A stretch of DNA of 64,000 bases from assembly GCA_963779755.1 (NCBI GenBank), contig CAVZZO010000001.1, forward strand, positions 768,001 to 832,000. Direction: 5' to 3'. Under the pieces are notes generated by a model. It saw nothing but the letters and a program-made list of their open reading frames with translations. It was not told where the DNA came from and ran no database searches. The stretch's first letter is position 1, and each line of letters begins with the position of its first letter. Positions 52,498-58,275 of the stretch are shown piece after piece. This stretch comes from an uncultured Gemmatimonadales bacterium (GTDB lineage: Bacteria; Gemmatimonadota; Gemmatimonadetes; Gemmatimonadales; GWC2-71-9). A program made the translations under genes and the position numbers.

Positions 52498-54903
52498 TCA
52501 GGGCTGGGCCAGCCCCACGAACACCTGGGTGGTCGCCTCCGGGATTACCCAGACCACGTCGTCGCGGCCATCGGCGTCGACTTTCTCGATGAAGACCTCC
52601 CCACCGTTGAAGCTGGCCGCGGCCGGAACAACTTGCCCAACCGGCGACACGGCCGGCACGCCGGATGCATCGGAGATGCCGCTGCGGACGAAGGCCGAAT
52701 CGGCGGTGAGTTTGACCCAGATCATGTCCGCGCGACCGTCCCCGTTCAGGTCCCCCGTCATGGGGGCGAAGTTCTCCACCGCATGTCCCGGATTGATGAC
52801 GCCCAGCTGGCTGAACCCACCCGAGCCGTCGCCCTGGAACCTGTGCATGTACACGCCGCTCCCGCTGCTTGGCAGGTTCCAGTAGATATCGGTGACCTGG
52901 TCGCCGTTGAAGTCTCCCACGACGGGCTGGTAGGTATCCCAGCAGCAGCTCGTGGAGTTGTCCCTGGCCGGCTGGAACGTGAGCCCGGCGCCGCCCGCCT
53001 GGGTGATGGCGGCATAGGTACGGTTGGTCAGGTGCACCGGAACATTGTTCCAGATGAGGTCCATCCGGTTGTCGCGGTTCACGTCGGCGAAGAACATGTG
53101 ATACCCGCTCCAGCCTCCCTGCGGCGGCGAGAACGGTCCGTGCACGGAGAAAGTCCCGTCCCGGTTCGAAATCCCGATGTAGGTGACGTTCGTGGCGCCG
53201 AGGAAATTCCATACCAGGTCGCCCGCTCCATCGCCGTCCATGTCGGCCGGGTCGGCCAGCTTGTAGCCGGTCCAGTTCCCGGTCAGCACCGTGTCCACCG
53301 GATCGAAGGAAAATCCGCCGCCGCCCTGGGAGCGCGCCACGTACACTTCGTTAGCGTTGCTGGCCAGGTGATTCCAGACCAGGTCGGCCTCGCCGTCGCC
53401 GGTCACATCGCCCACGTTCAGGGTGTAATTGGCCCACCCTTCGCTCGGCGCGGGCTGCGTGCTGCTGTACACGCTCGGCGCGCCGAAGACGCCGGTGGCG
53501 CCCGCCAGGCTTACCGCCACCTGGTTGGTCGCGGGGCTGCGGTAGTTCCAGATCAGGTCCGAGCGGCCGTCGCCATTGACGTCGGCCAGCTTCATCTCGT
53601 AGGGTGAGGGCACCGGGGCCGTGATGTTCTGGCCGGTGAGGAACTTCAGCTGCCCGGCCACATTGGACAGCTCCTGGCAGGTGCGCCGCGTATAGTTGGT
53701 GGTCTCGGTAACGTCGGCTTCGTGGTTGTCCGCCAGGTTGGTGAACGTGTACGACAGCGGCTTGGCGGTAGAGAGCGGTGCGCTGACCGTGAAGTAGCTG
53801 CGCCAGTCGCCGCTCCGGATCATGGCCGCCGTGGCCGAATCGGCGCCGCCCAGAGAGAAAACCTCGATCTCCGACTCGCTCAGGACGTTCTTCTGCCGGG
53901 CGGACAGGCTCGCGGCGGCGCCATTGCCCAGGGCATTGTAGCTCAGCTGCACGATGCCCTTGAGCTCCGACTCGCTGGCGTTGGCCTTGAGGGTGAACAT
54001 CATCATCCTGCCGTAGACGACCCTGCTCACGTAGATCGGCAGGTTGGCCGGCCCCATCCGCTTGAGGTCTACCTGCTGCTGGAGCTTGTCCGGCGTGAAC
54101 GCGCTGGTGAACCAGCCACCGGGCGTCGACGGAGGCGCCACCACCACCTCGTACATCTTCTGGAGAAACTGCACGCTCACCATGCTCTGCTGGCCATGGG
54201 TATTGCTGTTCACCTGGGTTCGCGCCTTCCAGCCCAGATAGCGCCCGGAGAGGCCCGCCTTGAGGGCGAACTCCTGCTCCGACCGGTAGGCGTCCATCCG
54301 GAAAAAGGTGGTGCTGCCGGTATTGAGGCTGTCGATGACGGCGTTCCCGATCATGTCCCCGATGGCCGAGGCGACCGCGCTCTGGTTCACGTTGCTCACC
54401 GTCCGGAAGTTGGCGCCGGTCGGCAGGCTGGGGATGGAGACGTTGATCGGCGCCCGCTCGTCGATGACCAGTGGCAGCACCGAGCCGGAGCCGTCGCGGT
54501 GGCTCGCGCCCTGGATGAAAGCCCCGGGCCAGAGGTAGGCCTCGTTGGGACTGTACATGACCAGATCCTGCGGCGTGCGGGTCGCGGAATAGGGGACGTC
54601 CTCGCAGGCGTAGACGACGTTGTGCTGTACCGCGAAGGAATCCGGCGTACTGGTGGGCGTGCTGTCGGCCGCAATGGTGTCCTGGCTGAAGGTGACCTGC
54701 CCCGTCTCCACCGAATCCACATCCGGAAGCGTGGGCGAAAACGTCGCCCAGCCGGGCAGGCCTTGCAGATAGGTGTTTGCGTCCGACGACCCGCCGCCCC
54801 CGGGTCCGGTGCTGCCGGAGTCCTTGGCGCCGCATCCGGCGACCAGCATGAGCACGAAGGCGATGCCACCCGATGTCCGGGCGGCTCGGCTGAGGCGAGG
54901 CAT
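52498..54903 (-). CDS. Thiol-activated-cytolysin (CDC-like) lipoprotein with C-terminal FG-GAP beta-propeller
   Basis: LVAGC lipobox; LWPGAFIQG, FLQKMYEV, YVSRVVYGR, LGG, PLSYT (CDC core); seven DxD/NGDGxxD-like repeats; GGAGG SD before ATG 54903. Confidence 0.85.
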   Translation of the reverse strand: MPRLSRAARTSGGIAFVLMLVAGCGAKDSGSTGPGGGGSSDANTYLQGLPGWATFSPTLPDVDSVETGQVTFSQDTIAADSTPTSTPDSFAVQHNVVYACEDVPYSATRTPQDLVMYSPNEAYLWPGAFIQGASHRDGSGSVLPLVIDERAPINVSIPSLPTGANFRTVSNVNQSAVASAIGDMIGNAVIDSLNTGSTTFFRMDAYRSEQEFALKAGLSGRYLGWKARTQVNSNTHGQQSMVSVQFLQKMYEVVVAPPSTPGGWFTSAFTPDKLQQQVDLKRMGPANLPIYVSRVVYGRMMMFTLKANASESELKGIVQLSYNALGNGAAASLSARQKNVLSESEIEVFSLGGADSATAAMIRSGDWRSYFTVSAPLSTAKPLSYTFTNLADNHEADVTETTNYTRRTCQELSNVAGQLKFLTGQNITAPVPSPYEMKLADVNGDGRSDLIWNYRSPATNQVAVSLAGATGVFGAPSVYSSTQPAPSEGWANYTLNVGDVTGDGEADLVWNHLASNANEVYVARSQGGGGFSFDPVDTVLTGNWTGYKLADPADMDGDGAGDLVWNFLGATNVTYIGISNRDGTFSVHGPFSPPQGGWSGYHMFFADVNRDNRMDLIWNNVPVHLTNRTYAAITQAGGAGLTFQPARDNSTSCCWDTYQPVVGDFNGDQVTDIYWNLPSSGSGVYMHRFQGDGSGGFSQLGVINPGHAVENFAPMTGDLNGDGRADMIWVKLTADSAFVRSGISDASGVPAVSPVGQVVPAAASFNGGEVFIEKVDADGRDDVVWVIPEATTQVFVGLAQP

Positions 54904-58275: not shown

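Follow-up and report, generated by a model that had tools for sequence, protein, structure and literature searches.

A gene for a CDC-like lipoprotein with a beta-propeller is linked to an ECF43-type sigma factor and a TPR receptor kinase, and is preceded by a candidate sigma-dependent promoter, in an uncultured Gemmatimonadales bacterium and its relatives

The window analysed here is a 64,000-nucleotide stretch of contig CAVZZO010000001.1 from an uncultured Gemmatimonadales bacterium. Three genes at 52498-58275 are the subject of this study: a lipoprotein gene of the cholesterol-dependent cytolysin (CDC) superfamily on the minus strand, called the toxin gene below, and, on the plus strand, genes for an extracytoplasmic function (ECF) sigma factor of the ECF43 type and for a PknS-like receptor Ser/Thr kinase (Table 1). 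A first-pass annotation of the same DNA had described a minus-strand cytolysin gene, a 255-bp spacer, a sigma without DAED in region 2.2, and a membrane kinase with tetratricopeptide repeats (TPRs) behind its transmembrane (TM) segment close after the sigma, and this layout was borne out. PF01289 matched in open reading frame (ORF) 52498-54960, the spacer between ATG 54903 and the sigma ATG 55159 is 54904-55158, region 2.2 of the sigma reads HTLQTTALVHEAY (Q49-T50-T51-A52), and the gap of 24 nt is followed by a kinase with its TM segment at ~386-408. The pair had also been likened to EcfK/PknS, which agrees with QTTA and Thr51 in the sigma and with 9EED (PknS) as the best solved relative of the kinase.

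Table 1. Features of the toxin, sigma and kinase locus (positions in the window).
Feature	Position	Strand	Basis or detail
Strong hairpin just past the toxin stop	52385..52478	-	GTAAGGC heptamers and an inverted copy; array 52427-52478
CDCL-propeller lipoprotein gene, 801 aa	52498..54903	-	longest ORF reaches 54960; real start ATG 54903
C-terminal FG-GAP beta-propeller	52501..53604	-	PF13517, loop count, profile matches
CDC D1-D3 (Thiol_cytolysin) module, residues ~106-409	53677..54588	-	PF01289, profile matches, invariant columns
Signal peptide and lipobox LVAG-C, residues 1-24	54832..54903	-	translation; Cys24 an invariant column
Conserved 5' leader	54904..54957	-	box GGTGAGCACCCC 54946-54957; hairpins; Shine-Dalgarno GGAGGG 54908-54913
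Predicted ECF-type promoter	54964..54990	-	-35 TGAGGG 54985-54990; 17-nt spacer; -10 CGCT 54964-54967
ECF43-type sigma, 184 aa	55159..55713	+	TIGR02999, PF07638
Sigma codons: QTTA	55303-55314	+	
Sigma codons: Thr51	55309-55311	+	
Sigma codons: linker Thr106	55474-55476	+	
Perfect tandem heptamer AGGACTG x 4.3	55706..55735	+	spans the end of the sigma gene, stop codon included, and the gap up to the kinase start
PknS-like receptor Ser/Thr kinase, 845 aa	55738..58275	+	starts 24 nt after the sigma stop
Kinase N-terminal extension	55738-55992	+	
Kinase domain	55999-56841	+	
Kinase TM segment	56893-56961	+	
Kinase TPR region	~57133-58215	+	

The real start of the toxin gene was placed at Met20 of ORF 52498-54960 (ATG 54903-54901), because a start there yields a lipoprotein signal peptide ending LVAG-C (MPRLSRAARTSGGIAFVLMLVAGC), because the window's copy in the protein collection has 801 aa, and because the lipobox Cys24 was invariant in 26/26 aligned relatives, which had been chosen from 120 listed matches to cover the identity range. 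ATG 54960 lies only 4 nt after the -10 box of the predicted promoter, a further argument for the start at 54903. Genome contigs were scanned with this toxin-family alignment. Of 140 confirmed relatives, the best 80 loci were kept and are cited by L numbers (L001 and so on); gene orders are written with C for the toxin gene, S for the sigma and K for the kinase.

The D1-D3 module of the toxin protein matched PF01289 with an E-value of 3.4e-24 and 85.8 bits (cut-off 25). Over D1-D3 the family profile matched solved classical CDCs, anthrolysin O at E 4e-30, then intermedilysin, perfringolysin O, pneumolysin and others; matches to solved Bacteroidota CDC-like proteins (CDCLs) were weaker, at E 6e-13 to 8e-10 (8g32 6e-13, 8g33 7e-10). 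According to the available portion of Evans et al. 2020, the CDC/CDCL signature is an F/Y-F/Y-Xn-YGR motif with a Gly pair downstream. YGR297-299 and GG352-353 were invariant in the 26 aligned relatives. FG-GAP repeats (PF13517, E 6e-32) fill the C-terminal 370 residues and make up a propeller of seven blades, six with canonical D-x-D/N-x-D-x3-D calcium loops and one degenerate, in the position of domain 4 in CDCs. Its nearest solved relatives were PVL lectin (E 5.7e-20), a 'secreted esterase' and integrin alpha propellers. Domain 4, with its undecapeptide and cholesterol-recognition motif, was not found in the toxin protein, which is therefore CDC-like and not a CDC. By sequence, the protein stands nearer to the classical CDCs than to the Bacteroidota CDCLs studied so far, and the earlier description did not include the lectin/integrin-like propeller. 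From its family membership, the product is probably exported, lipid-anchored, bound to its target through the propeller, and pore-forming. The family of the CDC module is large, with 2038 cluster representatives at E ≤1e-3 and 308 at 1e-30.

A protease or a BcdI-like immunity gene was not seen in the window. The 264-aa ORF downstream of the toxin gene (51584-52378) was dropped as a candidate partner or immunity gene, having no family and no conservation beside relatives. The PADLOC defence models gave no match for the toxin and the sigma, and for the kinase only generic kinase models.

The sigma scored 217.6 bits against TIGR02999 (cut-off 126.15) and E 2.7e-57 against PF07638, and matched the Sigma70_ECF/TIGR02999 model, not the usual separate sigma-2 and sigma-4 models. 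QTTA is the ECF43 consensus at this position of region 2.2, where DAED/DxxD is replaced, in the part of PMC13147305 that was accessible. As far as the available sections of PMC13147305 and PMC8999054 and the PMC7826278 supplement go, ECF43 sigmas are without the acidic motif that binds RNA polymerase and are activated by Thr phosphorylation by the kinase encoded at +1. An anti-sigma domain was not found in the genes flanking the window's sigma, and a kinase is encoded at +1. Thr was kept at the phospho-site in 34/36 sigma copies of the surveyed loci. All 31 toxin-linked sigmas examined matched TIGR02999; they were taken from the 36 copies by leaving out one mis-called ORF, one duplicate and three extra copies. 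The window contains a single ECF43-type sigma and a single Ser/Thr kinase.

The kinase matched Pkinase (E 2.5e-44) and, over residues 466-826, TPR models (TPR_12, E 2e-46). It has an N-terminal extension of 85 aa, intact Hanks motifs (VAIK116, HRD210, DFG230, SPE260) and a single hydrophobic segment with the TPRs behind it. The match to its best solved relative, 9EED (E 2.2e-64), covered residues 5-362 including the N-terminal extension; PknB came next at 1.9e-45. 9EED is PknS(1-364) of Xanthomonas citri according to the depositors' paper. According to the accessible text of PMC13147305, PknS is built in the same way and cannot do without its periplasmic TPR part. Pkinase and TPR matches were both present in 21/21 toxin-linked kinases examined.

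Two variations on the kinase were observed in relatives. In L001 (8833-9210, minus strand) and L004 (9428-9820, plus strand) the kinase gene has shrunk to a short ORF that holds the N-terminal extension alone, and both loci still keep the sigma and the toxin promoter. A protein atlas contains free-standing proteins of 83-88 aa, without a Pfam family, that resemble this extension (score 0.96). This raises the possibility that the extension is a domain in its own right, so far undescribed, which perhaps docks the sigma. In L020 (1106-7160) and L034 (3561-9613) two TPR kinases flank one sigma (K<S>K>), and the divergent kinase gene bears a toxin-type promoter; two sensors may act there on one sigma, with feedback on one of them.

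A bipartite element, TGAGGG-N17-CGCT, sits 61 nt upstream of the toxin ATG. The pattern TGAGGG-N17-CGCY had a single match on both strands of the window, and that match fell in the right spacer on the right strand; the chance expectation was ~1 anywhere in 64 kb and ~0.002 for the toxin-sigma spacer and strand. The first-pass annotation had suggested motif discovery in orthologous spacers, and this recovered the same ECF-like promoter before the toxin gene. When hexamer-gap-tetramer pairs were enumerated upstream in 17 Gemmatimonadota-type loci, TGAGGG...CGCT came up in nine of them against a maximum of 4-5 in 8 shuffles, and the sites align at one fixed spacing as (C/G)ATGAGGG(G/A)AT-N-(T/G)CGCT. 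Across the 80 loci there were 21 matches to TGAGGG-N17-CGCY in 2.29 Mb, both strands counted. Fourteen of these immediately precede the toxin gene or a Big_5/PKD gene at the head of its operon, two precede the divergent second kinase gene (L020, L034), and five lie elsewhere. Between the window and L001, the best relative of its toxin (66% protein identity), both boxes are kept, the 17-nt promoter spacer has diverged and the distal spacer is unalignable.

Two copies of GGTGAG had been noted on the minus strand at 54952-54957 and 54987-54992. The coordinates are correct; the copies are not two instances of one site. One belongs to the -35 box GGTGAGGG and the other to the box GGTGAGCACCCC that opens the conserved leader. 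GGTGAG is common in the window (68 observed, 42 expected), so that the pair by itself means little; both copies fall within elements kept in relatives. A second match to a relaxed pattern near 55121 in the same spacer was judged to be chance. Matches upstream of kinases that lie inside the sigma coding sequence (L020, L034, L051) were not counted, since they coincide with the conserved peptide LDEALERL. A scan of 51400-58700 for sigma-70-type promoters found nothing.

To find neighbours of the toxin gene, the window's sigma and kinase parts were used in tblastn searches, and every ORF was clustered all against all without prior labels. A sigma and/or a kinase lay within 1.3 kb of the toxin gene cluster in 34/80 loci, that is, in 24/37 loci with at least 3 kb on both flanks and in 10 of 43 loci with short flanks. 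Kinase (37 loci) and sigma (32 loci) were by far the commonest neighbours. In the blind clustering, no other neighbour family occurred in more than 16 loci, and those that reached this number consisted of ORFs with repeat domains or in overlapping frames. Per 100 kb of flank, there were 11.9 sigma matches in the first kb and 1.7 to 7.3 at 1-5 kb, where a kinase or a second toxin gene mostly lies in between; at 5-10 kb from the toxin gene, only 2 sigma matches were present in 391 kb. The first-pass annotation had held that its proposal should fall if linkage were not conserved in relatives; the linkage is kept across phyla and gene orders.

At least six orders of the three genes were found. The divergent form of the window, K<S<|C>, recurs in L015, L025, L054, L063, L077 and others. 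K<S>C> occurs in L003, L012 and L041; S>K>C> in L020, L034 and L051; S>C>K>, in which the toxin gene separates the other two, in L029; C>S>K> in L044 and L076; and the convergent C>K<S< in L011, L016, L035, L038, L057 and L070. By the labels of their metagenome-assembled genomes (MAGs), linked loci come from Gemmatimonadota, Balneolales, Rhodothermales, other Bacteroidota, Calditrichota and Nannocystales. They are spread over nearly all major clades of a FastTree phylogeny of 83 long toxin proteins.

The upstream element differs among the linked loci. A Balneolales-type (B) motif, TCGCC(A/G)-N-GCGCGTA, has the same box-to-box geometry as the TGAGGG (G) type and was found in 11/31 regions against at most 8 in shuffles. 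The exact form TCGCC-N17-GCGCGTA had 19 matches in 12 loci: 14 before long or short toxin genes, 3 before the kinase gene, 1 before another FG-GAP gene and 1 before no recognisable ORF. By weight matrix, this type precedes the kinase gene in 8 distinct loci and a sigma gene in none. A third variant (T), TGACCG-N17-(C/T)GCGT, precedes the toxin genes of L022, L040, L057, L059 and L073. Relaxed patterns gave 19 and 14 sites in the upstream target space, where 1.8 and 1.1 were expected from the overall density. In a quick-mode IQ-TREE phylogeny of 35 sigma rows, each motif type corresponds to one side of one branch, with supports of 91 for the G, 100 for the B and 82 for the T type, and the two sigma copies that do not adjoin a toxin gene are long-branch outliers. 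The sigma-4 recognition helix also differs by class (ISPATVHRDLR, GTEHSVRYDWR, ISExTVRREWR). It is the sigma tree that the motif type tracks, and not that of the toxins. Within a single toxin clade, a B-clade sigma and the B motif occur together in L011, L016, L028 and L054 and are both missing from L063; within a second, a near-G motif accompanies the G-clade sigma of L077 and a T-like motif the T-clade sigma of L073. This contrast between the two trees rests on few cases and is partly confounded with taxonomy.

The element also changes where the regulator is of another kind. Nine Bacteroidota loci are without sigma and kinase (L009, L010, L021, L027, L037, L039, L043, L045, L061), and the neighbour of their toxin gene encodes a protein of ~630 aa with a signal peptide, periplasmic TPRs, one TM segment and a cytoplasmic LuxR helix-turn-helix domain (e.g. 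L010 3537-5501). No sigma motif scored above the 99% null in any of the nine. A direct repeat, GTCCACC-N4-GTCYACC, was present instead in 7/9, as well as in three short loci of the same toxin clades, and all 10 matches to it in the 80 loci lie 80-210 nt upstream of toxin genes. The toxin gene thus travels with a dedicated regulator, and the upstream element changes with the regulator. We take this as the strongest argument that the neighbour controls the toxin gene.

Further regulators were seen beside toxin genes. Large BTAD(-NB-ARC)-TPR proteins adjoin the toxin gene, with no sigma or kinase, in L026 (179-3604, minus strand) and L058 (14233-16428, plus strand), and make a third kind of TPR-bearing regulator at this gene; response regulators adjoin it at other loci. 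The window's own TPR and GerE protein (59909-61648) was dropped as a relative of the TPR-LuxR regulators (E 0.42, unrelated). The likeness between the TPRs of the LuxR regulators and those of the kinases (24-30% identity, E down to 6e-12) was left unused, as it may be generic TPR likeness.

We consider it probable, though well short of certain, that the three genes of the window form a single signalling-and-effector module in which the sigma/kinase switch drives the toxin gene. The membrane kinase, with its cytoplasmic kinase domain and periplasmic TPRs, would detect a signal outside the cytoplasm and phosphorylate the adjacent sigma on Thr51 of QTTA, and possibly on linker Thr106. The phospho-Thr would supply the negative charge that the sigma needs for binding RNA polymerase, and the holoenzyme would initiate at the element upstream of the divergent toxin gene. 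The product would then be exported as a lipoprotein, the propeller would bind a target surface, and the D1-D3 module would oligomerise into a beta-barrel pore. Judged from the sequence, it is most probably the window's sigma that transcribes the toxin gene, and toxin production probably takes place only in response to an outside signal. Our case for phosphorylation, for activation of the sigma and for pore formation is drawn from the families concerned. The first-pass annotation had the TPRs sense a predator or competitor; this is a guess by analogy with EcfK.

Several points weigh against this reading. Ten of the 37 full-flank loci have neither the sigma/kinase module nor a LuxR regulator, L079 carries the motif with no sigma within 10 kb, and in 10 of the 31 scorable loci linked to a sigma or kinase neither weight matrix scored above null. 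The motifs were discovered and counted in the same, phylogenetically related loci, and the counts overstate the independent support; the divergence of the 17-nt and distal spacers argues against mere relatedness as the cause of motif conservation. No such motif precedes the window's own sigma or kinase gene, so the pair is probably made constitutively there. The taxon labels of the loci are MAG labels, some of them doubtful. On the side of the toxin, the CDC aromatic pair F/Y-F/Y aligns with Met250-Tyr251 in the hidden Markov model alignment, and a short CDCL partner was not found, the whole window having one CDCL gene.

It is conceivable that the element is read by a sigma or another regulator encoded elsewhere, and that the adjacent pair controls other genes and only shares the island. 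L079 would fit this, as would the 8/34 scorable loci without a visible sigma or kinase that scored above null, and the motif predicted for ECF43 ('GTC in -35, CAG in -10' in the PMC7826278 supplement) differs from ours, though that prediction applies to proteobacterial members. We hold this to be quite unlikely: the motif type goes with the adjacent sigma, by clade and by sigma-4 helix, and not with the toxin tree, the motif also precedes the adjacent kinase gene in 8 distinct Balneolales-type loci, and most loci without a visible sigma sit on short contigs. ECF43/kinase pairs are reported to be numerous in some phyla, and the adjacency in the window might be put down to their frequency. Such a coincidence is very improbable given that the only pair in 64 kb is the one adjoining the toxin gene, that the positional enrichment in relatives is ~20-fold or more, and that linkage persists through so many gene orders.

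Two other explanations change the role of the lipoprotein. It may be an input as well, if the TPRs bind the CDCL-propeller protein or sense its insertion into the membrane and it serves as co-sensor or feedback for the kinase. TPRs are protein-binding modules, PknS requires its periplasmic domain (PMC13147305, in the part available), tight linkage in every gene order would suit physical partners equally well, and the promoter that Balneolales-type kinase genes share with the toxin gene points to a feedback loop. We find this unlikely all the same: the conserved promoter before the toxin gene marks at least a regulated output, and replacement by LuxR- or BTAD-type proteins leaves the toxin gene beside a regulator, which fits regulation better than a fixed protein pair. 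Alternatively, regulation may be as proposed, and the pores may serve lysis, release of contents or development by forming in the envelope or the vesicles of the producer itself. The lipoprotein is presumably anchored to its producer, and neither an immunity gene nor a partner was found in the window. To us this too appears improbable, as every studied CDC and CDCL acts on other cells, to judge from the available parts of PMC7527733 and PMC11169675, and the replacement of the receptor-binding domain by a lectin/integrin-like propeller suggests that a foreign surface is recognised.

The non-coding ends of the toxin gene are predicted to be structured as well. The leader is ~90% identical to that of L001 (9941-10003), while the proteins are 66% identical, and it folds at -31.7 kcal/mol (z -2.7). 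The toxin transcript presumably starts in the leader box, at ~54955. An Rfam scan of 52300-55300, which includes the leader, gave no match. Related leaders at other loci also open with a GC-rich hairpin; an alignment of 15 leaders was too heterogeneous for assessing a common RNA structure. The hairpin after the toxin stop folds at -57.6 kcal/mol (z -4.3), as well as which none of 200 shuffles folded, and it is probably the transcript end, though it has no U-tract. Similar repetitive DNA lies next to the sigma gene of L001 (~8000-8700).

Other genes accompany the toxin gene in relatives. In six Gemmatimonadota loci, L012 (7876-9897), L041, L044, L047, L048 and L051, a gene for a 670-aa Big_5/PKD protein lies directly upstream of and codirectional with the toxin gene, and the promoter motif precedes this gene; the window has no Big_5/PKD gene. 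The Big_5/PKD protein is likely a co-transcribed partner of the toxin gene. A second, shorter CDCL gene stands in tandem with its own promoter motif in several Balneolales/Bacteroidota loci, L025 (12720-15663), L032 (7733-9664), L021, L023 and L039. It is interrupted in L025 by an insertion sequence (rve transposase, 13622-14458) and is in two ORFs in L032. These tandem genes recall the long/short two-component CDCLs. Elsewhere in the window, two ECF sigmas with fused SnoaL-like C-terminal domains are encoded at 46698-47723 (plus strand) and 49951-50838 (minus strand), adjoining DoxX, carboxymuconolactone-decarboxylase-family and polyketide-cyclase-like genes, a layout that resembles the ECF41-type arrangement.

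The closest known regulatory system is EcfK/PknS of Xanthomonas citri, described in the accessible part of PMC13147305 as an ECF43 sigma and a Hanks-type receptor kinase that induce an anti-amoeba type VI secretion system. Both sigmas have Thr in the DAED position (QATE in EcfK, QTTA in the window) and a conserved linker Thr, Thr106 in the window being the putative equivalent of T106 in EcfK. In both systems the kinase gene directly follows the sigma gene, and the kinase has an extension of ~85 aa, a kinase domain, one TM segment and periplasmic TPRs. They differ in phylum, in promoter and in output, which in the window is one divergent gene for a predicted pore-forming lipoprotein and not a secretion-system cluster. 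EcfP/PknT of Vibrio parahaemolyticus, which serves the polymyxin response, likewise has a DAED-less sigma (STTA there) activated by Thr phosphorylation in the published sections available, an activation assumed for the window; regulon and signal differ.

Among toxins, the two-component CDCLs of Bacteroidota (Elizabethkingia, Bacteroides fragilis) kill related bacteria, according to the portions of those reports at hand. They share with the window protein D1-D3 with YGR and the Gly pair, a lipoprotein signal, a C-terminal binding domain that is not that of CDCs and, at some related loci, long and short forms in tandem. The window protein differs in its FG-GAP propeller as binding domain and in its weak profile match, and control by a sigma or kinase is not reported for those CDCLs in the same portions. 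Classical CDCs (perfringolysin O, anthrolysin O and others) align with it over ~320 residues of D1-D3 with YGR in register; the window protein lacks domain 4, and hence the undecapeptide and the cholesterol-recognition motif, and is a diderm lipoprotein with Met-Tyr in place of the aromatic pair. The first-pass annotation had known of no CDC-like toxin under such control, and our full-text literature search likewise found no CDC or CDCL coupled to an ECF sigma or Hanks kinase, and no description of FG-GAP-bearing CDCLs. Evans et al. 2020 nowhere uses the word 'propeller', nor the 2024 CDCL paper the word 'kinase', and the ECF reclassification gives no toxin in the ECF43 context in the one supplement covered (PMC7826278).

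ECF43-type sigmas with their kinases are a large and barely studied signalling class, with two worked-out systems and hardly any defined promoters or regulons. The locus places a single, easily assayed target gene beside its candidate regulators, with a -35 box that varies by sigma clade, so that sigma specificity, activation by phosphorylation and the TPR signal become directly testable. For toxin biology, it points to a conserved branch of the CDC superfamily that bears a propeller and occurs in phyla of which few members have been cultured, and hints at pore formers that are under dedicated signal control and deployed in encounters rather than constitutively made. As a tentative and rather doubtful extension, the module might be a widespread, horizontally shuffled 'sense-then-perforate' cassette of environmental diderms, in which a TPR receptor senses contact with or damage by a grazer or competitor and the phospho-sigma fires the toxin promoter, and which sister lineages have rewired to TPR-LuxR or BTAD-TPR regulators with their own operators. 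If that were so, the TPR sensor and not the chemistry of the output would be the conserved logic, ECF43-type sigmas outside Proteobacteria would for the first time have a defined promoter and regulon, and a toxin of the CDC superfamily would for the first time be placed under the control of sigma phosphorylation.

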